From contig CAMNVW010000001.1 of assembly GCA_946563605.1 (NCBI GenBank), positions 1-48,504 of the forward strand: a DNA stretch of 48,504 nucleotides, given 5' to 3'. The notes below the pieces were generated by a model, which did not search any database, was not told the origin of the DNA, and was given only the letters and a program-made list of their open reading frames with translations. This document shows, one piece after another, positions 4,214 to 45,505 of this stretch; within the stretch, counting starts at the first letter, position 1; every line of letters starts with the position of its first letter. Position numbers and translations under genes: made by a program. The stretch is from an uncultured Clostridia bacterium (GTDB taxonomy: Bacteria > Bacillota > Clostridia > Oscillospirales > Ruminococcaceae).

Positions 4214-4248
4214 AAAATGAGCTGTCCCTTGTTGGGACGGCTCATTTT
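4214..4248 (+). terminator. Rho-independent terminator
   Basis: AAAATGAGCTGTCCC-ttgtt-GGGACGGCTCATTTT; a second hairpin AAAAAGCGTTC/GAACGCTTTTT follows at 4262-4287. Confidence 0.8.
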
Positions 4249-4481
4249 GCTATTGTGATTGAAAAAGCGTTCCTGCGAACGCTTTTTTTATTTTTTCAGC
4301 GGATGAAGGGGATTGGGCAAATGAAAAGACAGGAAAAAAGGATATTTTTTTCAAAAAATGTGCGGTTGTTGCACGAAAGGATGCAATTTTTACCGCAAAA
4401 CGGGGTATGGGTAGAAGAGGTAATAGAGGACGACCCCGAACACAAAATCAAAGCCTCTTCAAAAAAAGGAGGTGAGCAAAA

Positions 4482-4955
4482 ATCGAGACGGAAGAAGCGA
4501 AAAGGTTTGCGTACTGGTATTTTCTGCTGCGCGACCCAAACCTTGCCGCCGCGAAAGTGGGGATGGAAGATGGAATCCTGCTGCTGAGCGAGCGTAAGGT
4601 ACAAAGCCAGCTGCGCAGGCTGCGCCGGTTATTTGCGAAGGAGTCCCCAGGGGAACTGGCAAAATGGGGATTATGCCGGATGCTGTTTTCTGTTCCTCAG
4701 GTGGATGAGGAGGGAAAGTTGACAGGCGACGGCTTCTCATTGGAAAAGTGTTGCACCGGAAAGGGAACAGAGTACAAATTCTGGGACAAGCTCAAAGCGT
4801 GCGAGCTTTTGATGAAGCTGGAAGAAATGCTCTCCTGCAAGGGAGAAAACACGTTTGAGGGAATCTTATCGGCACTTCAGCAGGGAGCAGCAGGTTTATC
4901 GGACGCAAACTTATCGCAGGAATCAGGGGAAGAGAGAGAAGGTGAGGAAGAATAA
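4482..4955 (+). CDS. Terminase small subunit (divergent Terminase_2-like), probable ATC start
   Basis: Perfect SD AAGGAGGTGA (4466-4475) 6 nt before an in-frame ATC; N-terminal AKRFAYWY...NLAAAKVG...LL HTH-like pattern and C-terminal KFWDKLKACELL; directly upstream of TerL. Confidence 0.7.
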   Translation: METEEAKRFAYWYFLLRDPNLAAAKVGMEDGILLLSERKVQSQLRRLRRLFAKESPGELAKWGLCRMLFSVPQVDEEGKLTGDGFSLEKCCTGKGTEYKFWDKLKACELLMKLEEMLSCKGENTFEGILSALQQGAAGLSDANLSQESGEEREGEEE

Positions 4956-6211
4956 AAAAATTCAGTCAAAAGCAGATGGAACTGCTGAGCTGGTGGTGTC
5001 CTGAAAGCAGGTACGCAAGCTATGACGGCATCATCTGCGACGGTGCGGTGCGAAGCGGCAAAACCATGTGCATGGCGATTTCCTTTTTTGTGTGGAGTAT
5101 GGCAAGCTTTCAGGGACAGAATTTTGCAATCTGCGGCAAAACGATCGCCTCGGTCAGAAGAAACGTCCTTCAGCCGATGCGCAGTGTTTTGAGCGAGATG
5201 GGGTTTGCGTGCAAGGAAAAGGTATCGCGCAATTACATCGAGCTCAGCCATGCGGGCAGAGTGAACCGGTATTATCTCTTTTCGGGCAAGGACGCCGGCA
5301 GTGCAGCTTTAATTCAAGGGATGACCCTCGCCGGTGTTTTGTTTGACGAGGTTGCCTTACAGGATCACAGTTTTGTGGAACAGGCAGCGGCGCGATGCTC
5401 GGTAGAGGGCAGCCGGTTTTGGTTCAACTGCAATCCAGAGCATCCGGGTCATTGGTTTTACACGGAGTGGATCTGCAAAAGGGCAGAAAAGAATTTATGC
5501 TACCTTCATTTTTTAATGGAGGACAACCCTTCTCTCTCCGCAAAGATGCGCAGGCGGTACGAGGGCTTATACAGCGGCAGCTTTTACGAGCGGTTTGTCC
5601 TTGGAAAATGGGTGAGTCCGCAGGGACTGGTCTATCCAATGTTTTCCGCCGAGCGGCATTTGATCCGGCAGGCACCTATCTGCGACAGGTTTTGGGTTTC
5701 CTGCGACTATGGGACGGTGAATCCCTGCTCAATGGGGTTATGGGGGTATTCGGGCGGAAAATACTACCGCTTAAAGGAATACTATTACGATTCCCGAAAG
5801 CAGGGTATCTGCAAAACCGATGAGGAACATTATGCCGCCTTAGAACAGCTGTGCGAAGGAAAGAAAATCGAAGCGGTCATTATAGACCCGAGTGCGGCAA
5901 GCTTTATTGCGTGTATCCGCAGGCATGGGAAATTCCATGTGATACCGGCGCAAAATCAGGTCAGCGAGGGCATCTCGCTGGTAGCTTCCCGATTACAGGA
6001 GGGCAGCCTGCTTTTTAGCGAGGGGTGCAAGGACAGCATACGGGAATTTTCACTTTACCGGTGGAATGAAAGCGCACAGAAGGATGTTCCTATCAAGGAA
6101 AACGACCACGCAATGGACGACATCCGGTACTTTGTGATGGAGGTATGCAGGCACAGGCGCAGCGGATATTTTGCGATTGTACAGCAGCGCAGGACAGGCA
6201 TACAGACTTAA
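4952..6211 (+). CDS. Terminase large subunit (PBSX-type), probable ATA start
   Basis: Walker A DGAVRSGKT, Walker B GVLFDEVA, coupling motif FNCNP, nuclease motifs SCDYG, DPSA and DHAMDDIRY. The N-terminal FSQKQ..L.WW pattern extends upstream of ATG 4976. Confidence 0.92.
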   Translation: MKKFSQKQMELLSWWCPESRYASYDGIICDGAVRSGKTMCMAISFFVWSMASFQGQNFAICGKTIASVRRNVLQPMRSVLSEMGFACKEKVSRNYIELSHAGRVNRYYLFSGKDAGSAALIQGMTLAGVLFDEVALQDHSFVEQAAARCSVEGSRFWFNCNPEHPGHWFYTEWICKRAEKNLCYLHFLMEDNPSLSAKMRRRYEGLYSGSFYERFVLGKWVSPQGLVYPMFSAERHLIRQAPICDRFWVSCDYGTVNPCSMGLWGYSGGKYYRLKEYYYDSRKQGICKTDEEHYAALEQLCEGKKIEAVIIDPSAASFIACIRRHGKFHVIPAQNQVSEGISLVASRLQEGSLLFSEGCKDSIREFSLYRWNESAQKDVPIKENDHAMDDIRYFVMEVCRHRRSGYFAIVQQRRTGIQT

Positions 6212-6225
6212 AGGAGGGAAACAGG

Positions 6226-7440
6226 TTGCAAAATCCGGTATGGAGCTGGAAAAAAAGAAGGGCGGAGAAAAAGGGTCCGCCGGTTGCATACACGGCAAGT
6301 GTGCAGACAGGACAGGTAAAAAGCCACCCATTCGACTTTTTTGAGCGAGTGGGTGCGGTGGATGAACAGGAAAACCGATTATTTGACCAGATTCGTCAGG
6401 CAGTGCCGATCGTGGACGCGTCCATCAACAAAATCATCCGTCTGGTAGGTGGATTTACAGTGAATTGTTCAAACGGGGATGGACAGCGCGAACTGGATGA
6501 GTTCTGCAAGAACATTCAGGTAGGTGCGTCCTCGGTGGGGCTGGAGCAGTTTTTATACTGTTATCTGGACAATCTGCTGACCTACGGCAATGCGGCAGGA
6601 GAGATGATCCCTCTGCGCAGCGGCGACGGAATCGGCGCGCTATACAACATTCCGCTGACCGATATTTTGGTAAAGGAAAGCGAAAATCCCACCCACATGG
6701 ATTTATTCAGCTATCCTGACGGGGTGACGCCGGCGCCGGTTGAGCACCCGGAACGCATCTTATTTAGCGCGCTCAATCCGGCGGCAGGACAGCTCAAAGG
6801 CAGGTCGCTGTTATCGGGGCTGCCGTTTGTATCGTCGGTGCTTTTGAACATCTATCAGTCAATTGGTCAAAATTTTGAACGGATGGGAAACCTGCGTTTT
6901 GCGGTGACCTACAAGCCGCAAGGCGGTGTAGACGGCACATATGCCCGTGAAATTGCGCAGGACATGGCAAATCAATGGGCAGACACGATGCGCGACAGCG
7001 GACAGGTCAAGGATTTTATTGCGGTGGGCGATGTGGACATCCGCGTGATTGGTGCGGACAATCAGGTGATCGACACACAGGTACCGGTGCGGCAGATGCT
7101 GGAACAGATCATTGCAAAGTTAGGTCTACCGCCGTTTATTCTGGGGTTAAGCTGGTCCACGACCGAAAGGATGAGCCAGCAGCAGGCGGAAATTCTGGCA
7201 AGCGAGCTGGAAAGCTACCGCGAAATCTTGACCTCGGTGATCCTGCGTGTATGCAGGTATCATCTGAATCTGAAGGGGCTGGGAGGCAAAATCTCGGTCA
7301 AATGGAAGAATATCAGCATTACCGACGAGGTAGAGCAGGCAAGAGCACAGCTTTTGTCGATGCAGGCAAAACAGATCGAAGCCGCGCTGAATGGCGGACA
7401 AATGGAAGGAGAGGGTGAAGGTGGCGATGAGCCATTATAA
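6226..7440 (+). CDS. Phage portal protein
   Basis: TTG start after AAGGAGG; 404 aa; position after TerL; LLTYGNA..E, GRSLLSGL and IIAKLGLPPFILG patterns. Confidence 0.8.
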   Translation: MQNPVWSWKKRRAEKKGPPVAYTASVQTGQVKSHPFDFFERVGAVDEQENRLFDQIRQAVPIVDASINKIIRLVGGFTVNCSNGDGQRELDEFCKNIQVGASSVGLEQFLYCYLDNLLTYGNAAGEMIPLRSGDGIGALYNIPLTDILVKESENPTHMDLFSYPDGVTPAPVEHPERILFSALNPAAGQLKGRSLLSGLPFVSSVLLNIYQSIGQNFERMGNLRFAVTYKPQGGVDGTYAREIAQDMANQWADTMRDSGQVKDFIAVGDVDIRVIGADNQVIDTQVPVRQMLEQIIAKLGLPPFILGLSWSTTERMSQQQAEILASELESYREILTSVILRVCRYHLNLKGLGGKISVKWKNISITDEVEQARAQLLSMQAKQIEAALNGGQMEGEGEGGDEPL

Positions 7441-8425
7441 AAAGGCAGGAAGTCTTATCTGCAAGGGACTGCACATCGGAGAGGATGACCTTGAGAAAAT
7501 CAACACGCTGACAAGAAGGGAATTTTCCGAGGACGAACTATACTGTTTTCGAGTCGTGCTATGCGACAACGACATCGACCGCGACATGGAGCAGTTTGAC
7601 CAGGACACGCTGGAAGAGCTGGCAAGGCTGTTTGTCGGCAAGACCGGTATCTGTGACCACGAGGCGGCAAGCAGAAACCAGCAGGCGCGAATCTATGAAG
7701 CGGCGGTAGAAAATTTCCCGGGAAAAGTGAACGCGCTGGGTGAGCCTTACTATGCTGTCGTCGCAAAGGCGTACATGGTGCGAACTGAGTCAAACAGGGA
7801 TCTGATTCTGGAAATCGAAGCGGGCATCAAGAAGGAGGTCAGCGTTGGATGCAGCGTTCGTGAAAGCATCTGCTCCATCTGCGGCAAAAACCGCAGTGTC
7901 TGCGAGTGCGGACACGTTGTGGGAGAAGTGTACGACGGGAAGATGTGCTACACGATCCTGCACGGAGCAGCAGACGCCTACGAATGGTCTTTTGTAGCGG
8001 TGCCGGCACAGCGTCAGGCAGGAATTATCAAGAGTGTAAAGTCAACCGTAGCCGCCGCTTCTGATTTTACACAGAGCACTGTGGATACGGTACAGAAGCT
8101 GTGGAAGGCGGCGGAATACAGACGGGGTCTGTGGCTGAGCGAGGCAGAGGTTTTGCAGTTACAGGGCAGGGTGAAAAATCTGATGGAGGACTGCGAACAG
8201 GTGCGCAGGATGACCAGAAAAGAGGTCATGCACGCATTTTACGACAGCGGTGAAATGAACGAAAATATCAACCGCGAGCTTTCCGCGATGCTGGATGAAC
8301 TGAGTGTGGAGCAGATGAGAACCCTCAAAAAGCTCATCCGAAAAGAGACAACAGAGCTGACACGTCCGCAGTTCACACCGCGAAGCGAAGAACAGCTCGA
8401 TTCAGACAAGAGATTTATGATTTAG
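7427..8425 (+). CDS. Prohead protease / scaffold
   Basis: DNDIDRD, ICDH, KEVSVG, CSICG Cys cluster and EWSFVAVPAQ typical of caudoviral maturation proteases; helical C-terminal scaffold-like region. Confidence 0.75.
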   Translation: MSHYKKAGSLICKGLHIGEDDLEKINTLTRREFSEDELYCFRVVLCDNDIDRDMEQFDQDTLEELARLFVGKTGICDHEAASRNQQARIYEAAVENFPGKVNALGEPYYAVVAKAYMVRTESNRDLILEIEAGIKKEVSVGCSVRESICSICGKNRSVCECGHVVGEVYDGKMCYTILHGAADAYEWSFVAVPAQRQAGIIKSVKSTVAAASDFTQSTVDTVQKLWKAAEYRRGLWLSEAEVLQLQGRVKNLMEDCEQVRRMTRKEVMHAFYDSGEMNENINRELSAMLDELSVEQMRTLKKLIRKETTELTRPQFTPRSEEQLDSDKRFMI

Positions 8426-8438
8426 GAGGAATTGTACA

Positions 8439-8783
8439 ATGAAAGACATTTGTTTACAGGGCTACAACAGCAAATACATTACCATGAAATGCGCAGGTGA
8501 GGCAGACGCCGGCGACCTGCTGGTCATGGACAGCAACAACACCGTCAAAAAGGCGGCATCCGGCAAGTTTATTGGTATCCTGCACTCCCTGCGCGGCGAA
8601 TATGCGCTGGTACAGACCGGCGGCTATGCAGTGGTGCCTTATTCGGGGGATACCGCGCCTACCCTTGGTTTTAGCACTCTGGCGGCAGACAGCAACGCGG
8701 ATGCGGTCGTCAACGCGGCAGGCAGGGAAGTTCTGGTCGTAGAAGTGGATACAACCGCAAAGAAAGCCGGCATCCTGTTTTAA
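8439..8783 (+). CDS. Putative head decoration/cement protein
   Basis: 114 aa, Gly/Ala-rich, between protease and major capsid genes. Confidence 0.55.
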   Translation: MKDICLQGYNSKYITMKCAGEADAGDLLVMDSNNTVKKAASGKFIGILHSLRGEYALVQTGGYAVVPYSGDTAPTLGFSTLAADSNADAVVNAAGREVLVVEVDTTAKKAGILF

Positions 8784-8831
8784 CAGGACGCAATTCTTAC
8801 AAGGAAAAATGTTAACATGGAGGAAAGAAAT

Positions 8832-9848
8832 ATGAAATACAATTATCAGAACATCGCGATTTCCAAGGATTATTACAAGACTGGAGAGGGATTTTCCAAC
8901 TGTCTGGAAAGACTGGATCCATCCGAACAGTACAGAGGTACAGAGCTTGCCGGTTACGATGCTTTTCAGCGACAGCTCAAACGATTTGACATCAAGGTTT
9001 CCGGTCACGACAGCGATAGATTGCAGAAATTCTTTGCAACCTCCGACAGTGCGGCACTCTTTCCGGAATATGTGTCCCGAGCAGTCAAACAGGGTGTTGA
9101 TGAAAACCATATTTTAAGTGAAATTTGTGCGGCAAACACACAGGTGGAAGGAATGGATTACAGAGCAATCGCTGCCGATCCGAACTGGGAGGAACAGGCA
9201 CCATCCGTCATTGAGGAAGGCGGTGCGATTCCGGAGACTTCCATCCATCTGAAGGACAGCCTGATCAAGCTGAGAAAACGCGGCCGTATGATGGTGGCTT
9301 CTTATGAGGCAATCAAATTCCAGCGTCTCGACCTGTTTACCGTAGCGCTCAAACAGATTGGTGCGTGCATCGGCAAAGCACAGCTGAATGACGCGGTCGA
9401 CGTTCTGATCAACGGAGACGGCAACAGTAATCCGGCGAAGGTTATTACGATTGCGGACACAGACAAGAAAACACTGGTCTACAAAGATCTGCTCAATCTC
9501 TGGGGCAGCTTTGGAGAATATCAGATGAACGTAATGCTCGCCTCCCCTGATATGATGCTCAAACTTTTGCAGGTGAAGGAACTTCAGGATCCGGAAACAG
9601 GACTCAACTTCCAGGCGACCGGCTGTCTTTCCACCCCGCTGGGTGCGAAGCTGTTTGTTTCTTCCGCGGTTCCGAAAGGTAAAATCATTGGTCTGGACAA
9701 GCGTTATGCACTGGAAATGGTGAGCGCCGGCGGCATCAATGTCGAATACGACAAGCTGATCGACTGCCAGATGGAGCGCGCTGCGGTGACTTCCATCACA
9801 GGCTTCTCCAAAATCTTCCCAGACGCAGTGAAGGTACTGAGCGAATAG
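8832..9848 (+). CDS. Major capsid protein (HK97 fold)
   Basis: 338 aa; ALFPEYV, IEEGGAIPET, KRGR...ASYEAI, INGDGN, V.KGKIIGLD; GGAGG RBS before ATG 8832. Confidence 0.85.
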   Translation: MKYNYQNIAISKDYYKTGEGFSNCLERLDPSEQYRGTELAGYDAFQRQLKRFDIKVSGHDSDRLQKFFATSDSAALFPEYVSRAVKQGVDENHILSEICAANTQVEGMDYRAIAADPNWEEQAPSVIEEGGAIPETSIHLKDSLIKLRKRGRMMVASYEAIKFQRLDLFTVALKQIGACIGKAQLNDAVDVLINGDGNSNPAKVITIADTDKKTLVYKDLLNLWGSFGEYQMNVMLASPDMMLKLLQVKELQDPETGLNFQATGCLSTPLGAKLFVSSAVPKGKIIGLDKRYALEMVSAGGINVEYDKLIDCQMERAAVTSITGFSKIFPDAVKVLSE

Positions 9849-9858
9849 AGGAAACACA

Positions 9859-10218
9859 ATGGATGAAAAACTTTTAATGCAGCATTTTTGCCTCATCAGC
9901 GGTTTGACCGCTGATGAGGCGGAACAATGGAAACCGCTGGTCGTTGCCTGCTGGGAGGACTTAAAAGGCAGGCTTCGTCCAAGTGCGGATATTCCCAAAA
10001 ATCAGGAGAGGTTAGCCTTAGCGTGTGCGGCGCTTGCCAACCACCGTTTTCAGACCATTCAAGGCACCGTCTGCGCAAGCGTGAAGGTAGGGGACATCTC
10101 TTTTGCGCAGAGCGACGGCGCTCAGGCGAGAAAGGAGCTGCTCGAAATGGTGGGGGATTTGATTGATTCCCAGGGAATCTGCCTGAAAGGGGTGGAAATA
10201 TGCACTGTGAACAGGTGA
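9859..10218 (+). CDS. Head-tail connector/adaptor
   Basis: Follows the capsid gene; L.LACAALA and SVKVGDIS patterns of gp15/gp6-like adaptors. Confidence 0.6.
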   Translation: MDEKLLMQHFCLISGLTADEAEQWKPLVVACWEDLKGRLRPSADIPKNQERLALACAALANHRFQTIQGTVCASVKVGDISFAQSDGAQARKELLEMVGDLIDSQGICLKGVEICTVNR

Positions 10219-10526
10219 TCCGCCGTTTGATCCGCCGGTGCGGCAGGGTAGTGCAGTTCCCGAGCGGAAGTTTTTTAGCATATCTCAACCCTATTCGAGA
10301 ACGGACAGACAAGCTGATTCCAACCGAATCGGGTATTTTTCACCAAGGCAAGTGGATATTGATTGCATCCTGTGACAAAGAGGATGAGGTGCGCGGCAAC
10401 ACCGTCTTTACAGCCGGAAAGGAAAAGTTTTTATTGGAACGTGTGGAGACGGTCTATTTCCAGAACAAGCCAGCGTACCTTTGGGGACTGGCGGTGAAAG
10501 CACAGGAGGAAAGAGACCATGAATGA
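10200..10526 (+). CDS. Putative head closure protein
   Basis: 108 aa; position and overlap coupling within the neck module. Confidence 0.5.
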   Translation: MHCEQVIRRLIRRCGRVVQFPSGSFLAYLNPIRERTDKLIPTESGIFHQGKWILIASCDKEDEVRGNTVFTAGKEKFLLERVETVYFQNKPAYLWGLAVKAQEERDHE

Positions 10527-11001
10527 GTTTTCACAGATCTTAACACTTTTAAAACAGGAGCTTTGTGCCTGTGACAAGGAACTGAAGGTTCTCAGCGCGT
10601 TTGCGAATCTGCCGCGGCAGAATCCACAGCACAGCAAATTTGCCGTAGTGGGTATCCAGAAGGTGGCGCTGACGCCAATCGGACTGGAAAACTATTACGG
10701 GGATGAAAAGCTGCCGTTTGGCAGAAAGGCGCAGGTGTATTTAAAGGTATCCTTTTGCTGCAAAAGCGGCGAGGAGTGTTGGAAATTATGGGAAAGCTGT
10801 GCGCAGCGGCTAATCTTTTCAAAGGAACTAAAAGTGGGGCAGATTGAATGCGGAGAGGTTTCCTGGCAGAAGGATTGGGGCGGCATGGTGCTGCCGGTCA
10901 AGCTCTGCTGCGACTTTATCATCAGCGGTGCAGCGGATGAGAGTCCGTCAGGAATCCATCCCGACAGCTTTCAGATTATCAGGAAAGGGGTTATCGGATG
11001 A
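10519..11001 (+). CDS. Putative tail terminator / neck protein
   Basis: 160 aa, immediately before the sheath gene. Confidence 0.5.
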   Translation: MNEFSQILTLLKQELCACDKELKVLSAFANLPRQNPQHSKFAVVGIQKVALTPIGLENYYGDEKLPFGRKAQVYLKVSFCCKSGEECWKLWESCAQRLIFSKELKVGQIECGEVSWQKDWGGMVLPVKLCCDFIISGAADESPSGIHPDSFQIIRKGVIG

Positions 11002-12062
11002 GAAAAACCTATCGTCCGGGAGTATATTCCCAATATGACGTCGTCAGCAGACAGAAGCGCTATGAGGGCAAATACGCGCTTTTCTGCGGCGGCGCAAAGG
11101 TAAAGGAAGAGAAAAATTTGCCGGCAGGCGGCGTGGTGCAGCTGCGTTCATTGCAGGAGCTGAACGAGTATTTTGTGCCGGAAGATGCAGGAGAGGTGTT
11201 TAACGCGGTGTGCTCCATCCTGCTTAGCAGCGGCGTATCGAGTGTGTATGTTGTGCCAATCACCATTGACGGCTCTGTGCCGACAAAACAGCAGTACACA
11301 GCGGCGATTCAAAAGCTTTGTGAAATCAAGTGCAGCGGCGTGATTTTATGCGACAGCACCGACGCGGACGTTTTGAAAGTATTGTGCGAAAAAGCGCAGG
11401 ATGCTTCCCAAAATGAACGGGAAAAGATTGCGGTTGGCGGTGCAGCAAAGCAGACAGGCGTACAGACCGCGCAGTCCATCAACCACGAAAGAATGGTTTT
11501 ATGTGCGCAGGCGGGTACGAGCGTCTTTTCCGAAAGCTCGTCGGTGCTTTTTACTGCGGCGGCGTTAGCCGGAATATTGGCGGTTGCTGAGCCGGATGCA
11601 AGCTTTCACGGGACAAGACTGGAACTGCTGACCGACATAGAGGCTTTGGAAGAAGAGGAAATCGAAGCATTTTTCGGCGGCGGTGTAACGCCTTTGGAAG
11701 AAAACGATACGGCGGTAGAGTGTATCCGCTGTGTAACGACAAGGACAAAAACAAACGGTGAAACGGACAGGACCTTTGCTTCGGTCAATGTGGTGATGAT
11801 GATCGACGATATGATTCGTTCGATGCGCGTACAGCTGAGCGGTCTGCTGAAAGGCAGCAGAGCAGGACTTTCTGAGGACAGTGTTGCTTCCCAGGCGGCG
11901 GTGGTCTTAGACGAAAAAATGCAGCGTGGAATCATCACCGCCTTTGAGCCGCCGGTGGTTTACACGCAGGAGGATGATCCGACCGTCTGCGTCGTGGAAC
12001 TGGAATTCCGTCTTGCAACGGTACTGAGTCAGATTTATCTGACCGCGCACATTTCGATTTAA
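10998..12062 (+). CDS. Contractile tail sheath protein
   Basis: N-terminal RPGVY; C-terminal GGVTPLE..., IRCVTT, V..IDDM and DDPT...V pattern of sheath proteins; 354 aa. Confidence 0.85.
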   Translation: MRKTYRPGVYSQYDVVSRQKRYEGKYALFCGGAKVKEEKNLPAGGVVQLRSLQELNEYFVPEDAGEVFNAVCSILLSSGVSSVYVVPITIDGSVPTKQQYTAAIQKLCEIKCSGVILCDSTDADVLKVLCEKAQDASQNEREKIAVGGAAKQTGVQTAQSINHERMVLCAQAGTSVFSESSSVLFTAAALAGILAVAEPDASFHGTRLELLTDIEALEEEEIEAFFGGGVTPLEENDTAVECIRCVTTRTKTNGETDRTFASVNVVMMIDDMIRSMRVQLSGLLKGSRAGLSEDSVASQAAVVLDEKMQRGIITAFEPPVVYTQEDDPTVCVVELEFRLATVLSQIYLTAHISI

Positions 12063-12073
12063 GGAGGAAGAAT

Positions 12074-12448
12074 ATGGCGTTGGTTTCGATTCCGACAAGT
12101 GCGGATATTTACATTGAGGTAAACGGAAGAAAGGTAGCCGCCGCGCAGAGCTACAAGGTGAAATCCTCACGCGAAAGCAAGTACATCGAAGCGTTTGGCA
12201 GCAAGGAGCCGGTCGGCACCGTGGGCGGCAGAGTAAAACACTGGATCGAGCTGTCGAGGGTATGCTTATGCCAGAGCGAAGGAATTGACTTTTATGATTT
12301 AAGCGGCTTCAATCTGGTGGTAGTGCGTCCAGACTGCAAGATTATCTACTCGGGGTGCGAGTGGTCGGACATTACGCAGGCGGCTTCGGTAGGCGAGGTG
12401 ATCCTGGAAAAGGTGAGCCTTGTGGCAAGCAGAAGAATCAAGATTTAG
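12074..12448 (+). CDS. Tail tube protein
   Basis: 124 aa directly after the sheath; IYIEVNG.KV, IYSGCEW. Confidence 0.7.
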   Translation: MALVSIPTSADIYIEVNGRKVAAAQSYKVKSSRESKYIEAFGSKEPVGTVGGRVKHWIELSRVCLCQSEGIDFYDLSGFNLVVVRPDCKIIYSGCEWSDITQAASVGEVILEKVSLVASRRIKI

Positions 12449-12458
12449 GAGGAAACGG

Positions 12459-12770
12459 ATGGCGGCAGTTTGGAACAGGTTATCGGCGGCAGAAGAACTT
12501 TGCTTACAGACACAGGCGGAGCAGGGTTTTGAGTATTTATGTTTCCTTTGCGGAAAAGACAGGACAAGGCAGGAAAAAGAAGGCCTATGGGCGTTAGCAA
12601 ACAACGCGGCGGTCATCTGCCTTGCGATGAAAGAGGGAAACCGGCAGGTATTTTACAGTGCGCGCGAGGTACTGGAAAGCTTGAGTCTGCAAAAAATTGC
12701 CGCCTTAGCGCGAGAATATCATCAGGAGATGGAAGGAGAGGAGGAAACCGTTTGCGCATCGAGGGATTAG
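12459..12770 (+). CDS. Putative tail assembly chaperone
   Basis: ATG 12459 after AGGAGG; 103 aa, helical; follows the tube gene. Confidence 0.55.
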   Translation: MAAVWNRLSAAEELCLQTQAEQGFEYLCFLCGKDRTRQEKEGLWALANNAAVICLAMKEGNRQVFYSAREVLESLSLQKIAALAREYHQEMEGEEETVCASRD

Positions 12771-13153
12771 AAGAAAACAAAAGCGTTTTTATGCAGAGCC
12801 GATTTTTTTCAGAGCTGCCGGAGGAGATGGGTGCAGTTCAGGAACAGAAAAATGCAGTTTTTGAGGAAATCCTGCCGGAGCAAAGGTCGCAGGAAGTAAG
12901 ATATGTGGAGATGGGCGGTGAGATTCCACGGAGCGCCGGCGTACAGCCTAAAACAAGCACAGGGTTTGAGGAAAACAGGAGCGCCGGCGTAAACACCGGC
13001 GGCACAGAAATAGAAAATGTGACAGTTCAGCAGGAAATTGCGCCGCTGGAAGGGCAAGCTGATATCCAGCAGATTTCGGACGAGCTGGAACGGCTTTCTC
13101 AGAGGTATGGCAGAAGAATGGAGGAGTGGCTGTATGACCAATCTTCGCTTTAA
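12752..13153 (+). CDS. Small acidic protein at the tape-measure position
   Basis: TTG 12752 after GAGGAGG; 133 aa, Glu/Gln-rich, with a 48-nt-spaced internal repeat (RSAGV). Confidence 0.55.
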   Translation: MRIEGLEENKSVFMQSRFFSELPEEMGAVQEQKNAVFEEILPEQRSQEVRYVEMGGEIPRSAGVQPKTSTGFEENRSAGVNTGGTEIENVTVQQEIAPLEGQADIQQISDELERLSQRYGRRMEEWLYDQSSL

Positions 13154-13487
13154 GGAATATGTTTTTCGGAACAATCCGCGCAAGCTGGTGCTGAAACATC
13201 AGCAGGAGGTCATGTCGGTCTGCTGTTACGGCTTAGGAAGAACATTGCAGCAGCTGGGAAAAGGACTGACCATAGTGGAGGGCGAAGGAGAATTATTTGG
13301 AGAGGACGCTCTTGAGCAGTTTACGGCGCTGAAAAAACTGATGCAGCAGGGCGGCAGCGGCGTCTTATGCGGTGCAGGCTTAGAGCCAATGAAGGCGGTA
13401 TTTGAAAGTTTACAGATGATTGGCAAGGGCGGCGATGAGACCATCAGTTACAGCTTTCGGTTTACACAGGACAGAGGTGAGGCGTAA
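13134..13487 (+). CDS. Putative tail tube initiator / baseplate hub N-terminal-type protein
   Basis: ATG 13134 after GGAGGAG; F..NP, QQLG, GEGELFGEDA and YSFRF pattern; position before the hub gene. Confidence 0.55.
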   Translation: MTNLRFKEYVFRNNPRKLVLKHQQEVMSVCCYGLGRTLQQLGKGLTIVEGEGELFGEDALEQFTALKKLMQQGGSGVLCGAGLEPMKAVFESLQMIGKGGDETISYSFRFTQDRGEA

Positions 13488-14402
13488 ATGGAGCTGGACT
13501 TTTTTCTGGAGACGCTGGACCAAAAGCGCAGAAAGCAAAAAAATCCTGTGGAGTTTTCCTGCGTTTCCTCGGTCGACACACCGGCGGACAGCTTAAAGGC
13601 GGTGTTTTTGATAGCCTCGCCGCAGGAATGGGAGCAGGAGATTGCACAGATCGAGGTACAGTTGGACGGCAAGAGAATCTTTCACGGGAACTGTGACCGG
13701 CAAATCGTCAGCATGGGACAAAACGGGTGCCGCCTGACGATATGGGGCAGGTCAGACGCGGCGGTCTTACTGGACAACGAAGCGATTCCACAGGAATACA
13801 GCCGCGTTTCGCTCAACGAAATGTTTTGCAGGCATCTGGAGCCCTACGGCTTTCAAAGTCAATTTCCACCTGAAGTACAGGGTGTACTGACCGATTACCG
13901 CGTGGGAAAAGGTGTGAGCGAATGGGAAGCATTTTGTACATTTTGCCAGCGTGCAGTGAAGATGACGCCATACGTCTATCTTTTGAAGGTGTCGTTTTTG
14001 ACACGAGGTCGGGGACAGCACATCATTACGCCGCAGAACAGCATGGTGAAACAAATCAGCAAAAGCACACGGCGCAGCGAGGTCATCTCGGAGACGCTGA
14101 TTCGCGACGAACTGGGAAGATACAGTTCACAGGTCACGAACGAACAGGCAAAGGAATTGAAGATCAAACGCAGAAGATGCCTGATTCCATCAGCGCAGTG
14201 GGCTCAGCCTGCGGCGGATGCGCGCATCAAGATGGAGCAGTCGATGCGCGGCAGAGTGCGATGGGAAATTGAGCTTGCTGAGGTTTTGGACTGGGAACTG
14301 GGTGAAGAAGTGGTTTTTTCGGAATATTTCCGAGGAAATATTGTTCATCGGGAAATCGGATTTTCCCAAAAGGGCGGCTTTACCCGATTGTTTATAGAAT
14401 AG
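13488..14402 (+). CDS. Baseplate hub protein (XkdQ / Mu gp44-like)
   Basis: DTPADS, IFHGNCD, GRSDAAVLLDNEA, G.SEWE; 304 aa. Confidence 0.7.
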   Translation: MELDFFLETLDQKRRKQKNPVEFSCVSSVDTPADSLKAVFLIASPQEWEQEIAQIEVQLDGKRIFHGNCDRQIVSMGQNGCRLTIWGRSDAAVLLDNEAIPQEYSRVSLNEMFCRHLEPYGFQSQFPPEVQGVLTDYRVGKGVSEWEAFCTFCQRAVKMTPYVYLLKVSFLTRGRGQHIITPQNSMVKQISKSTRRSEVISETLIRDELGRYSSQVTNEQAKELKIKRRRCLIPSAQWAQPAADARIKMEQSMRGRVRWEIELAEVLDWELGEEVVFSEYFRGNIVHREIGFSQKGGFTRLFIE

Positions 14403-14497
14403 AAAACGGATTCTGGTGATTTCCCGGGAAATAGCGGTCGTCGGGAAAATGATGTTAAGTTGAATACAGCTTTATAAAGCAGAAAGGGGAAAAAAGA

Positions 14498-14842
14498 ATG
14501 TGGCTTGCAAAGCAATCTTCTGCGAAAATGCAGGAGGAAACCAAAAACAACAGTGAAGCGCCGGCAAAAACCATCTGCGCCAAAAGCGGCGAACGGTTTG
14601 TGGTGGGTGCGAGCGAATATCGCACCCTGCCGGTCTGTGCGCCATATGGGATTTATACAAAGCCTCCGCAGGGCGAAGAACTGCTGATTTTATCTGCGCC
14701 GAGCGGGGAAATCTGTTTGGGAGCAGTTGGGAATCCAAAAGAGGAGCTGCTTGCCGGAGAGATTTTGCTTTGTTCCTCTGGCGGGGCAAGCATCCGGTTG
14801 TGCAACAACGGGAAAATCCTGCTCAACGGAAAAGAAATCTAA
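14498..14842 (+). CDS. Baseplate spike-like protein (Mu gp45-like)
   Basis: APYGI..KPP.GE, GEI.L.S.GGA.I.L...GKI..NG. Confidence 0.65.
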   Translation: MWLAKQSSAKMQEETKNNSEAPAKTICAKSGERFVVGASEYRTLPVCAPYGIYTKPPQGEELLILSAPSGEICLGAVGNPKEELLAGEILLCSSGGASIRLCNNGKILLNGKEI

Positions 14843-14863
14843 CAACGAGGGAGGTTCATTTTT

Positions 14864-15229
14864 TTGGACACTTTTTTATATCACGGCGACCACAAAAGAG
14901 ATGAACGGGGATTTGTGCAGGGTATCAGCGGTGCATCCGAAGCAATTCAGCAGGCGATGATCCGTTTATCGGTGCCAAAAGGAAATTTTGGACTGGATAA
15001 ACAGCTGGGCAGCCGATTGCACACGCTGGGCAGCGCATTGAGTAAAAATCAGGAGGAGCTGGCGCTGGAATACGCGCGGGAGGCTGTCTTGGAGGTGCCG
15101 GATATTCGCGTTATATCCGCGAAAAAGGTTTCGGGAGATGCAGAAAATCTTGTGCTGGAATTTCAGCTGGAATACAACGGCGAAGAGGTTCCGGAAAAGT
15201 TTCAGGTTATGTGGGAAATGAATTTTTAA
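14864..15229 (+). CDS. Baseplate wedge protein (gp25/gp46-like)
   Basis: QQAMIRL...KG.F..D..LGSRLH, YAREA; TTG start after GGGAGG. Confidence 0.7.
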   Translation: MDTFLYHGDHKRDERGFVQGISGASEAIQQAMIRLSVPKGNFGLDKQLGSRLHTLGSALSKNQEELALEYAREAVLEVPDIRVISAKKVSGDAENLVLEFQLEYNGEEVPEKFQVMWEMNF

Positions 15230-15247
15230 CGAAAGGGGCGAAGCAGG

Positions 15248-16321
15248 ATGGAAGAAAATTTTGAGGGTTTTTTAGCGCAGATGCAGCAAAGCTATGAAAA
15301 ACTGGCAGGGATGCAGGCAGATGATGCTTCTGACATCGGTATCCGCTTTAAGATTCTGGCGGAGCAGTTGGCGATTTTCAGCGAAGAGCTTGCACAGGTG
15401 CGCAAGCAGTCCTTTGTGCAGACAGCGGACGGGGAATATCTGGAAATGCACGCGCAGCAAAGGGGAATCTACCGCAAGGAGGCAACCTTTGCAAAAGGCA
15501 GCGTCACATTTTCGCGTTCCAGTGCGGCGGTGTCGGATATCGAGATTCCATCAGGGGTATATCTGACCTGCAGTTCCTTCGGCGGCACCGCAGGGCTGCG
15601 TTTTGTCACCACCGAAGCAGCGACGCTCAAACAGGGTCAAACCAGTGTTGCCGTGTCGGTGCAGTGTCAGACGGCAGGCAGCATCGGCAACCTTGCAGCA
15701 GGGGTATTGGATGTGATGATCACACCGGTACAAGGAATCACCGCTGTGAAGAATCCGAATCCCATCAGCTCGGGGGAGGATGCGGAAAGCGACGAATCGC
15801 TGCGTCAGCGATTGCTGGACAGCTATCACAACATTGTAAACGGAACAAACAGCGCGTTTTATTATCATATGGCGATGCAGTATCCGGGTGTTTCCTCGGT
15901 GAAGATTTTGCCGAGGGTGAATGGGGTCAATACAGTCGGAATCGTTCTTTACGGCTCGGGCGTAGACGACCAGCTGATTCAGAAGGTGAAGACGGAAATC
16001 GGACAGCTCAAGGAAATCAACGTGGATTTGACAGTAGAAAAAGCCTCTGCCAAGTCAACGGCGGTTTCGATACAGATTGCGGTTGGCGAGGGTTACAGCT
16101 ATGCCGATGTCAGCGCAATCTGCGAAGATGCAGTGGAAGAATATCTGAAAAAACAGAAGATCGGTCAGCCGCTTTATCCGGCGCTTTTGGTGAGGGAGAT
16201 TTTAAACTGCGAAGGGGTAGCCAACTGCAAGGTAGTGTCGCCGTCGGCAGACCTGTATCCGTTGGAAAAAGAAGTGTTTGTATTATCCGGTTGTACGGTG
16301 AGCCAGATGGAACGGCAGTAA
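15248..16321 (+). CDS. Baseplate J / gp47-like protein
   Basis: TADGEYLE.HA..RGI.RK.A..A.G.V.F, AGSIGN, GEDAESDESLRQR. Confidence 0.9.
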   Translation: MEENFEGFLAQMQQSYEKLAGMQADDASDIGIRFKILAEQLAIFSEELAQVRKQSFVQTADGEYLEMHAQQRGIYRKEATFAKGSVTFSRSSAAVSDIEIPSGVYLTCSSFGGTAGLRFVTTEAATLKQGQTSVAVSVQCQTAGSIGNLAAGVLDVMITPVQGITAVKNPNPISSGEDAESDESLRQRLLDSYHNIVNGTNSAFYYHMAMQYPGVSSVKILPRVNGVNTVGIVLYGSGVDDQLIQKVKTEIGQLKEINVDLTVEKASAKSTAVSIQIAVGEGYSYADVSAICEDAVEEYLKKQKIGQPLYPALLVREILNCEGVANCKVVSPSADLYPLEKEVFVLSGCTVSQMERQ

Positions 16322-16335
16322 TGGAGAGATAGCAA

Positions 16336-16941
16336 ATGGATTGTAGAAAACGAAGGTACGCCAGAATGCGCTCACTACATCTTTATCAATTCCCCAAAAA
16401 GGAAAAATCGCTGGTGGAATGTGAACTGGAAAGCTATTTAAGTGTGCTGGAGCCGTTGATGGAAGAGCTTGCGCGGCTGAAAAAGGACGTTTTTATTGCG
16501 CAGTGCGGCGAAGAACGGCTTGCGGAATTTGAAAGATTGCTGGCAATTCCGGTCAACCACGATATTCCAACCCAAAAGCGGCGGGAGATCGCCCAAAGCA
16601 AAATGGCAATCGGGGTGAATGATTTTTGCCGAGAGGGCTTAGAGCGCGCGCTAAATGCCATCGGTATCAAGGCAAAGGTGGAAGAAACGCCTGGCGGTGG
16701 AAATATCATCGTGACAGCAAAGGAAATGGCAGACAACACCATGACGCTGGATCAGGCAAAACAGGCGTTCAACGCACTGATGCCGGCGCATTTGACGGCA
16801 GAATTTGTCACCGGCGGTTTAAGCTATCAGGAATTTGACAGCCTTGACAAGACCTTTGCGGAATTGGATCAGATGGACAAAAACTGGTCACAGTTGGAAA
16901 TGATGGGAATGGAAGAATGGCAGGAGGTTCAGAATGTCTAG
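16336..16941 (+). CDS. Baseplate wedge protein (YmfQ / DUF2313 / gp48-like)
   Basis: L..FERLLAI...RR, C-terminal PAHL motif; follows the J gene. Confidence 0.75.
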   Translation: MDCRKRRYARMRSLHLYQFPKKEKSLVECELESYLSVLEPLMEELARLKKDVFIAQCGEERLAEFERLLAIPVNHDIPTQKRREIAQSKMAIGVNDFCREGLERALNAIGIKAKVEETPGGGNIIVTAKEMADNTMTLDQAKQAFNALMPAHLTAEFVTGGLSYQEFDSLDKTFAELDQMDKNWSQLEMMGMEEWQEVQNV

Positions 16942-17410
16942 TACATACAAAACAAGCCATCTGGGGCTTAACAAGTTTATTGGAACGGACAAGCCAAAGA
17001 TGGACGATTTTAATTTTGACAACGAGACGATTGATGCAAAATTTCAGGAACATATAGAATCGGATCTCCACATTACTGAGGCGGAACGTCAACTGTTGGG
17101 AAAAAGCAATTACACGATTGGAACCTATACTGGCGACGATGCCTCCAGCAGGAATATTGACGTAGGCTTCGATGTGGAGTTTGGATTGGTCTTTGCACAG
17201 GGAGAGCCGGTAATCCAGGCTGCTTCCGGCAATATAACCAATATTTATTCGGGAATCATAACACAGACGGGCAGCAGCAAGGGTGTTATTGTCCAGCCAA
17301 ACGGGTTCAAAGTCACCCAGTTAAACACGACTCCGCCGGATGGCAAAAAGATGATGCTCAATCAGAGCGGAAAAGTCTATATTTATATTGTGTTCCCGAA
17401 AAAGAATTAA
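16934..17410 (+). CDS. Short tail fibre / receptor-binding-like protein
   Basis: N-terminal KT..LGLNKF..TD.P..DDFN.DN..ID fibre-attachment pattern; GTYTGD...IDVGF; only 158 aa. Confidence 0.6.
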   Translation: MSSTYKTSHLGLNKFIGTDKPKMDDFNFDNETIDAKFQEHIESDLHITEAERQLLGKSNYTIGTYTGDDASSRNIDVGFDVEFGLVFAQGEPVIQAASGNITNIYSGIITQTGSSKGVIVQPNGFKVTQLNTTPPDGKKMMLNQSGKVYIYIVFPKKN

Positions 17411-17411
17411 A

Positions 17412-17448
17412 AAAACAGCTTTCAGGATAAAATCCTGAAAGCTGTTTT
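17412..17448. terminator. Bidirectional terminator between the phage-like cluster and ftsK
   Basis: AAAACAGCTTTCAGGAT-aaa-ATCCTGAAAGCTGTTTT perfect 17-bp stem. Confidence 0.9.
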
Positions 17449-44591: not shown

Positions 44592-44698
44592 CCGGATTGA
44601 ATCTGGACACAATTCGCGTTGTCGGTTAAGTGCGAATTTGTAACCCTCGCTCTCGCGTAGGTCGCTCAGCTTCCGGCTTCGCTCGTTGGAGCAAAAAT

Positions 44699-45505
44699 AA
44701 AGTTTTACTCAATTTTTTTCAAAAAATTGTCCAGTCCAGAGTGAAACTCTGGTCGCTCATCGCAATGAGCGAAACACTTTTATCGTCAGGCGCTCCTTGG
44801 GAGAGCTCGATAGGAGATTTGCCGTTTTGGCTACGCCAAATGCCGCCAATCCGATATGGCGGCAAGGCAAACTCCAGAAGTAAATGCGAAGCATTTACTT
44901 CCCACTTTCTTGCAAGAGAAAAGGTTCTCGAAAACTGACAGTAATATCAATCTACCCTTCAAAAATTATCCAGTGGATGATTTTGGACAGTATAGACTTT
45001 TTCTTATATAAACAAGCTGCCTGCGGATGCAGGCAGGGTACTGCCGTACCACAGCAACGAAACGGCTATTGAGCCCCGCACGATTTTTTTATTTTATATT
45101 TTGGGTTGAGGGGTGTTTCGCTCGTTGCAAAGATCAAATCAAGGCAGAACAGATTTTTCAGATATAAGCAAGCTGCCTGCGGATGCAGGCAGGGTACTGC
45201 CGTACCCCAGCAACGAAACGGCTTTTGAGCCTCGCACGATTTTTTTATTTTATATTTTGGGTTGAAAGGCATTTCGCTCGTTGCAAAGATCAAATCAAGG
45301 CAGAACAGAGTTTTTTGATACAAGCAAGCTGCCTGCGGACGCAGGCAGGGTACTACCGTACCACAGCATCGAAACGGCTTTTGAGCCTCGCACGATTTTT
45401 TTATTTTATATTTTTGTTTGAGGGGTGTTTCGCTCGTTGCGACGAGCGAGCAGGCGCTCTGCTCCTGCACCTCGCAATTTTTTGAAAAAAATTGAGTAAA
45501 ACTTT
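44699..45505. repeat. REP/MITE-like composite bounded by perfect 31-bp inverted repeats
   Basis: 44699-44729 (AAAGTTTTACTCAATTTTTTTCAAAAAATTG) is the exact reverse complement of 45475-45505. Confidence 0.8.
45013..45440. repeat. 156-bp tandem repeat (~2.7 copies) with internal palindromes
   Basis: CAAGCTGCCTGCGGAYGCAGGCAGGGTACT units start at 45013, 45169 and 45325. Confidence 0.9.

Follow-up and report, generated by a model that had tools for sequence, protein, structure and literature searches.

What does a gut bacterium keep when it keeps a block of phage head and tail genes with no other part of a phage beside it? The question is raised by positions 4482-17410 of the window, by which we mean the whole 48,504-nt stretch analysed. 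The window is contig C1 of a 1.73-Mb genome (G000, completeness 87%) of the Ruminococcaceae; Negativibacillus records are the nearest named relatives of this contig, and rat gut metagenomes are among the sequencing runs that contain the stretch. Below, G000 is the source genome, other G numbers are relative genomes, and L numbers are extracted loci. We read the cluster as a domesticated, host-inherited phage morphogenesis operon, likely a gene transfer agent (GTA) that packs random 4-6 kb pieces of chromosome, and we put the probability of this reading at about 0.62. In terms of class, the best reading is a GTA-like viriform of a distinct lineage, spread over several loci.

The cluster consists of 20 plus-strand genes, abutting or overlapping, which account for 97.9% of its DNA and contain no internal stops. 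A first-pass annotation of the same letters had described about 20 intact, coupled morphogenesis genes with preserved terminase motifs, and both points held. Residues 2-390 of the large terminase (TerL) align with the terminase of phage D6E (PDB 5OE8, E 3e-129), and this alignment retains what we take to be the Walker A, Walker B and coupling motifs and the nuclease aspartates. TerL also matches Pfam Terminase_6N and TIGR01547 (200 bits vs a cut-off of 105), a PBSX-family terminase model that takes in ordinary phages too. No tRNA was found in the window, and none of its 46 proteins matched an integrase family. No att-like repeat was seen, the longest word common to both flanks being 12 nt vs ≤14 nt in shuffles. 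Within 4482-17410 there is no replication gene, family searches and a check of small open reading frames (ORFs) found no lysis gene or regulator, and no plus-strand hydrophobic small ORF of the holin kind was found at the cluster. The earlier description of a locus free of such genes, bounded by terminators and host-like in composition, is thereby borne out: hairpins close it on both sides (Table 1), GC content is 51.1% vs 48.2% genome-wide, and GC at third codon positions is 0.594 vs 0.572 +/- 0.061 in 1004 host ORFs.

Vertical inheritance, also proposed at first pass, finds support in copy number, synteny and trees. Searches for the capsid gene gave a match in 11 of the 16 genomes examined from the genus and in 183 of 400 Ruminococcaceae genomes, with a single match in 179 of the 183; it was not found in the remaining 217 of those searched. 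At a capsid cut-off of E 1e-35, 178 family genomes pass, spanning 65 genera, and many genera are all-or-none. An order-level search recovered the gene from 35 of 300 genomes, three families accounting for 31 of the 35, and a class-level search from 7 of 299 scored genomes, two of which lie outside the order. Named carriers include Ruminococcus sp. NK3A76, R. champanellensis, Clostridium facile (C. facile), Massiliimalia, Paludicola and Youxingia, as well as Dysosmobacter, Oscillibacter and one metagenome-assembled genome (MAG) of the Acutalibacteraceae. Gene order is fixed in Negativibacillus, where a G5/3D gene and/or ftsK flank most loci, and an FtsK tree of ten genomes places the genus's five non-carriers in a single clade (support 1.0). 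A tree of terL, portal, protease and capsid shows the same main clades as a tree of LepA, the one host gene on which the congruence rests (31 genomes; Mantel r 0.80; 0 of 2000 permutations as high).

The ratio of nonsynonymous to synonymous substitution (dN/dS), a check suggested at first pass, indicates purifying selection, with values of 0.097, 0.114 and 0.078 for the cluster in three close pairs and ≤0.02 for the capsid gene. Close relatives among full prophages were likewise not found. Capsid matches occur in 10 of 50,697 phage records, namely five unannotated faecal contigs (47-58% identity) and five cultured-phage records at only 21-27%. One faecal match, when examined, proved to be host chromosome with ribosomal-protein genes, and complete copies in IMG/VR are either the bare 12.8-kb cluster or extend into ftsK. 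Virome catalogues thus count the cluster's host locus as phage. Record MT835508.1 (L054), named 'Bacteriophage sp.', is a piece of host chromosome with a head-only cluster beside Rnf and ribosomal-protein genes. The sequence-level outcomes that the first-pass annotation had held to speak against a GTA (a patchy distribution with full prophages as closest relatives, frequent pseudogenisation, dN/dS near 1) were not encountered. The cluster is not a dead prophage; it is a real domesticated system.

What has been kept is informative about function. Across 42 cluster loci, protease and capsid are present in 42, the small terminase gene terS, terL and portal in 39 (the gaps come from split clusters or the ends of contigs), and the sheath in 22. 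A sheath profile run genome-wide found none in 19 of 19 sheath-less carriers, single-contig genomes included, with both controls (2/2) positive, and on a quick maximum-likelihood tree of 39 rows the sheath must have changed at least three times. Because head and terminase are near-constant and the sheath is often lost, selection keeps a DNA-filling head and not the contractile tail, which argues against killing as the main role. By its predicted gene products the tail is a stub, and the contractile tail is an optional module of this family of clusters, not its core. Of the earlier phrase 'complete head plus contractile tail', the head, sheath and baseplate genes therefore stand; a complete tail does not, as the predicted tape measure has 133 amino acids (aa), the predicted tube initiator lacks LysM, and the cluster has no long tail fibre gene. 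Tape measures correspond to about 0.15 nm of tail length per residue, so that the predicted tail would be at most ~20 nm long.

A conserved dyad, GTTGCA-N8-TGCAAC at 4368-4387, lies upstream of the cluster, followed by a T-tract and, 17-22 nt later, by a second conserved element (Table 1). Of 37 loci, 25 have the dyad at a distance of 350-900 nt before terL; of 1350 control stretches, 52 have it. A matrix built from 23 relatives gives two sites in G000, that of the cluster (score 49.2) and one on contig C239 (48.1), which points off the contig end, its target gene being lost there. In relatives the dyad heads holin-GH25 (G013) and holin-amidase (G426) cassettes unlinked to the cluster, and it precedes RepA_N or DUF6291 initiator genes (G004, G426, G156) and short initiator-like genes without a Pfam match (G009, G426). 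In G009 a holin-GH25 cassette has no dyad within the 12 kb examined. The earlier claim of 'nothing else of a phage' is thus right for the locus and wrong beyond it, given these lysis cassettes and an unlinked candidate activator. In RNA run X9 a single contig extends over 4411-14917 at a depth of 29.9 vs ~1-8 upstream, beginning 24 nt past the dyad; this run pools all 30 bins, run X19 of the same study is without that start, there was no control stretch, and we do not count the signal as evidence. G014 has dozens of copies of the dyad together with ~60-100 nt of its context (49 matches on the forward and 41 on the reverse strand; the control gave 1 and 0), often as tandem pairs before host genes such as murA (e.g. 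L079, L084, L089, L091, L093, L048); these copies look like a promoter-derived repeat. In G013 (L113:2120-3946), genes with long Cys-rich CxxxC repeats lie directly upstream of the dyad-headed lysis cassette.

The candidate activator is a protein with sigma region 4 only, encoded near the cluster in G064. Its 98-aa orthologue in G000 (C28:4783-5079) is divergent from an Xre gene across a spacer of palindromic repeats over sigma-70-like promoters, and Xre lies within 1.5 kb of the activator in G000, G009 and G097. At cut-offs of E 1e-9 (activator) and E 1e-35 (capsid), both genes occur in 160 of the 400 family genomes, neither in 208, the capsid gene alone in 18 and the activator alone in 14, counts in which kin genomes are not independent. 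The protein is the likely activator of the operon, which it would bind and switch on. A prediction of its homodimer scored 0.01 vs a mark of 0.42. Because the activator lies on another contig than the cluster, no single fragment holds all the parts. REP-like intergenic repeats sit at many G000 contig ends (e.g. C239:1-330) and also at 44673-44724 of the window, which is likely why the assembly is broken.

From these parts a mechanism can be proposed. In a few cells Xre repression would be lost and the activator made; bound to the dyad, it would induce both the operon and the lysis genes. ATC and ATA starts would keep the headful-type terminase scarce, and this enzyme would cut chromosomal DNA independently of any site and pack it. 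Random 4-6 kb pieces of producer DNA would fill small heads that bear a contractile stub tail, and cell lysis would release the particles. The ~20-nm tail would dock on kin cells via the baseplate and the 158-aa product of the last gene, and the DNA would enter, perhaps with the help of host ComEC, and then recombine. Near-cognate starts are found at terS (ATC, 4482) and probably terL (ATA, 4952), with CTG, ATA, ATC or TTG in relatives, which suggests that terminase translation is kept low. Between G006 and G010 (L021:9000-15000 vs L022), ~6 kb in mid-cluster differ by 1-12 changes per 500 nt and both sides by 17-83; the tract is consistent with a recent homologous exchange similar in size to the proposed cargo.

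Circumstantial evidence comes from related taxa. Host DNA reported from faecal particles measured 4.6 kb in Ruminococcus_C callidus, 4.4 kb in CAG-115 and 5.9 kb in Onthomonas, and no gene cluster was assigned to these particles (PMC12946183). The present cluster is a candidate source of such unexplained 4-6 kb packaging in gut Ruminococcaceae and Oscillospiraceae. As a lead only, clustering at 90% groups a protein labelled R. callidus with the R. champanellensis capsid. In its most far-reaching form the proposal is a GTA family that evolved independently in gut Oscillospirales and is carried by nearly half of Ruminococcaceae species; in Negativibacillus it would be the first contractile-tailed GTA (of few rings), controlled by one 98-residue sigma-region-4 activator that reads inverted -35-like boxes, and the source of the 4-6 kb particles in human and animal faeces; this we hold tentatively, at slightly less than even odds.

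Several observations weigh against the reading as a GTA. For this cluster the particle, its packaged DNA and its transfer are predictions from genes. Holin, GH25 and Amidase_2 were not found in G000 by tblastn and three Pfam families in a genome 87% complete, and G007 likewise gave no matches to the three families; lysis is the weakest link of the mechanism for G000. No dyad turned up in 12 of the 37 loci, among them the four that belong to other families, 18 carriers are without the activator at E 1e-9, and Xre lies within 1.5 kb in only 6 of 20 further activator loci. ComEC is present in carriers and non-carriers alike (20 of 20 genomes). TerS may keep a sequence preference, unlike RcGTA and FpGTA, given that an orthologue covers the full Terminase_2 model. 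The head tree has only 10 of 28 splits in common with the LepA tree, and of its 15 strong splits 5 are in conflict. Finally, the R. callidus label is the name of one MAG with a sheath-less variant and may stand for another strain than that of PMC12946183. A link to sporulation received no support, Spo0A being present in 19 of 20 genomes, carriers and non-carriers alike.

The main rival, which we consider unlikely, is a PBSX-like particle that packs random host DNA without delivering it and benefits its host by killing or inhibiting related strains with the contractile tail. The gene order from sheath to baseplate matches that of PBSX-type myovirus modules. TerL passes the PBSX-family model TIGR01547, Xre with a sigma-like activator is the control logic of PBSX (PMC8347963), and PBSX acts as a tailocin without DNA injection (PMC12946183). 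Such a role sits poorly with the genome-wide lack of a sheath in 19 of 19 tested carriers, in which head and terminase persist, and with a tape measure of 133 aa, likely too short for a thick wall; nor is there a long fibre gene, and the 3' end shows no fibre diversity, its 158-aa gene having a dN/dS of ≤0.08. Some other purpose for the producing cell (programmed lysis with protected DNA release, phage decoys, or interference with phage capsid assembly) would suit the retention of the cluster in very small genomes, the head-only versions (as in G426) and the regulation common with lysis genes. A full baseplate and an intact ATPase-nuclease motor would be costly, however, if nothing were delivered, and a family search of the window proteins showed no defence context; we rate this idea as less likely again.

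It is improbable that the particles act as a standing helper, moving mainly co-resident mobile elements or regions amplified from dyad-controlled initiators. The idea draws on the dyads before initiator and initiator-like genes and on run-off-like peaks in an Oscillospiraceae MAG (10.64898/2026.07.08.737213); yet the type of initiator varies from genome to genome, no dyad of G000 was found to precede one, and the reported Ruminococcaceae packaging is even across scaffolds (PMC12946183). A decaying prophage remnant without current function, to which an in-frame stop near the end of terS in G014, the repeated loss of tail genes and the absence from 217 of 400 family genomes might point, is very improbable: it is largely refuted by a dN/dS of about 0.1, and single copy, co-divergence over three families and a conserved promoter also stand against it. 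A domesticated operon that likely acts as a GTA is the reading we prefer.

The features of the locus are given in Table 1. Labels for neck, chaperone, spike, tape-measure, protease and last-gene products come from position, homologous loci or a motif, without a named family match.

Table 1. Annotated features of the cluster and its borders (window positions)
Position	Strand	Feature	Basis
4214..4288	+	two terminator-like hairpins (4214-4248, 4261-4288) closing the upstream G5/3D gene transcript	hairpin search
4368..4387	+	conserved dyad GTTGCA-N8-TGCAA(C/T), likely activator site overlapping the -35 region	recurrence in relatives
4405..4421	+	conserved element GTATG-GGTAGAAG (consensus GTATA-GGTGAAAGG), likely -10/+1 region by presumed role	24-site alignment
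4482..4955	+	small terminase, 157 aa, ATC start behind AGGAGGTGA	profile links 39/42 loci
4952..6211	+	large terminase, 419 aa, likely ATA start (first ATG 4976), PBSX/D6E type	family matches
6226..7440	+	portal, 404 aa, TTG start	phrog_30703, 9e-125
7427..8425	+	predicted prohead protease, helical scaffold-like C-terminus	phrog_16951 (unknown function)
8439..8783	+	head decoration/structural protein	phrog_4588, 1.5e-17
8832..9848	+	major capsid protein, HK97 fold	phrog_3922, 5e-95; fold model
9859..10218	+	predicted head-tail adaptor	position; kept in 37/42 loci
10200..10526	+	predicted head closure protein	position; homologue in G710 prophage-type locus
10519..11001	+	predicted tail terminator	position; homologue in G710
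10998..12062	+	contractile tail sheath, 354 aa	phrog_279, 1e-21; in 22/42 loci
12074..12448	+	tail tube	phrog_27038/phrog_985; 44% to post-sheath gene of G710
12459..12770	+	predicted tail assembly chaperone, 103 aa	position
12752..13153	+	predicted minimal tape measure, 133 aa	position only
13134..13487	+	predicted tube initiator without LysM	homologues in G710, G527
13488..14402	+	baseplate hub	phrog_177, 1e-9
14498..14842	+	predicted spike	phrog_25991 (unknown function); position
14864..15229	+	gp25-like baseplate protein	phrog_975
15248..16321	+	Baseplate J wedge	PF04865, 6e-50
16336..16941	+	Mu gp48-like wedge protein	PF10076 1e-6, below cut-off; phrog_521
16934..17410	+	158-aa baseplate-attached protein, candidate short receptor binder	N-terminal 53 aa match phrog_33092; presumed function
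17412..17448	.	17-bp hairpin separating cluster from convergent ftsK/spoIIIE	hairpin search

The small terminase of G000 has no direct Pfam match; its orthologue in L045 matches Terminase_2 (1e-15). The predicted protease carries the motif EWSFVAVPAQ, which we take to be of the prohead-protease type, and its single-sequence fold was unusable (predicted local distance difference test, pLDDT, 38.5). The capsid model has the HK97 fold (pLDDT 88.8), and fold searches with it returned only generic HK97/encapsulin matches, all at ≤19% identity, from which no estimate of head size was obtainable. The 133-aa ORF has a low-complexity, variable middle and a conserved C-terminal ISDELERLSQRY helix. Its dN/dS is relaxed (0.65-0.69 in two pairs, where the query frame lies partly upstream of the true start). 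The G710 prophage-type locus has an 822-aa tape measure in the same place; homology between the two was rejected for lack of sequence similarity, so that the assignment is positional, and the ORF may instead be a frameshifted chaperone extension. The tube-initiator homologues of G710 and G527 match phrog_184/phrog_16855 and carry LysM.

Among the relatives, the order of capsid and protease is swapped in L059, L065, L066 and L073, and in L060, L066, L067 and L068 (Ruminococcus-type) the cluster adjoins what we take to be a glycogen phosphorylase-like gene. Four Ruminococcaceae genomes of 0.7-0.9 Mb, 92-97% complete (G097, G124, G207, G225; L056-L058, L119, L120, L123), have each retained activator and capsid genes together with ComEC and a divergent Spo0A. 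In G097 and G207 (0.7-0.8 Mb) the cluster is split and each piece has its own dyad; a capsid-only nanocompartment in such tiny genomes was rejected, as G097 has terL and tail genes at other sites. G000 itself also holds fragments of a separate, ordinary prophage, at C131:1198-3371 and on contig C123 (terS, terL, portal, an Xre/Cro pair and a VRR-NUC-like gene). The second terminase, on C131, was considered as part of the system and rejected as belonging to an unrelated prophage fragment.

For abundant gut anaerobes (Ruminococcaceae, Oscillospiraceae and relatives), in which particles with host DNA had been seen without a cluster to explain them, a candidate cluster can now be named, together with a promoter signature for finding its scattered parts and a single candidate switch gene. 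Since carriers include the cultured species N. massiliensis, R. champanellensis and Clostridium facile, the question is directly testable. The system is a possible genetic tool for poorly tractable gut bacteria, and the forms found in nature, which run from full stub tail to head-only, would reveal how tails are lost as phages become domesticated.

We found no description of the cluster in the literature, in a search outside which most subscription papers lie. GTAs are defined as virion-like particles derived from Caudoviricetes that mostly contain random host DNA and deliver it to other cells; they are fully endogenised, often multi-locus, cannot package all of their own genes, and are mostly vertical, co-diversifying with their hosts (PMC9662315). 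Three of these six traits were found here: particle proteins of Caudoviricete derivation (by sequence), an endogenised, multi-locus state, and mostly vertical descent. The second is assigned because att, integrase and replication genes are lacking and the dyad regulon extends over several loci. R-type tailocins and contractile injection systems have no capsid, portal or terminase, whereas all three are present here and are the most constant part of the family; the integrase, att sites and replication module of an intact temperate prophage or capsid-forming satellite were not found.

PBSX of Bacillus subtilis and related species resembles the cluster as a chromosome-fixed head and contractile tail with a PBSX-family TerL, an Xre repressor and a sigma-like regulator (PMC8347963). 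It differs in being one ~28 kb locus that includes regulators (xre, xpf) and lysis genes with the structural ones, whereas the parts here are scattered, and in its long tape measure with transglycosylase, full-length contractile tail and 170-aa sigma-like Xpf (PMC8347963); the cluster has a 98-aa region-4-only activator, a 133-aa tape measure and a sheath that is often lost. RcGTA, which packs about 4 kb, BaGTA and BhGTA are similar as vertically inherited, multi-locus systems with a ~13-15 kb head-tail cluster under purifying selection, and unlike it in their non-contractile tails and Gram-negative hosts (PMC9662315). Common ancestry with them left no sign in the capsid fold matches, all ≤19% identical. 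The G710 prophage-type locus (L198), from another order of the class, carries the same succession of homologous genes, for portal, protease, decoration, capsid (41%), neck, sheath, tube and baseplate, and differs in its 822-aa tape measure, a MuF-type domain fused to the portal, a tail-completion gene, a LysM tube initiator and inserted cargo genes. If descent ran in the assumed direction, it likely shows the kind of myovirus ancestral to the cluster. Candidates of 14 kb in Coprocola, with a separate lysis cluster, and of 12.7 kb in Butyricicoccaceae likewise combine terminase and structural genes without an integrase; they belong to other families and are compared by description only (10.64898/2026.07.08.737213).

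The first-pass annotation had stated that it knew of no characterised GTA in this lineage, which does not hold, as FpGTA of Faecalibacterium has been described (PMC12946183). FpGTA shares with the present family of clusters its host family, a structural operon without integrase or replication genes, and lysis genes at a second locus; FpGTA is near-ubiquitous in Faecalibacterium (PMC12946183). The ten ORFs of FpGTA I occupy 10.5 kb; it is described as podovirus-like, with 8.4-8.9 kb of packaged DNA, and its TerS is said to have no DNA-binding domain (PMC12946183). The present cluster, by contrast, is made up of 20 genes, among them those for a baseplate and sheath of myovirus type and for a TerS of the Terminase_2 type. 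Set against FpGTA's own description, the cluster is distinct from it in gene content.

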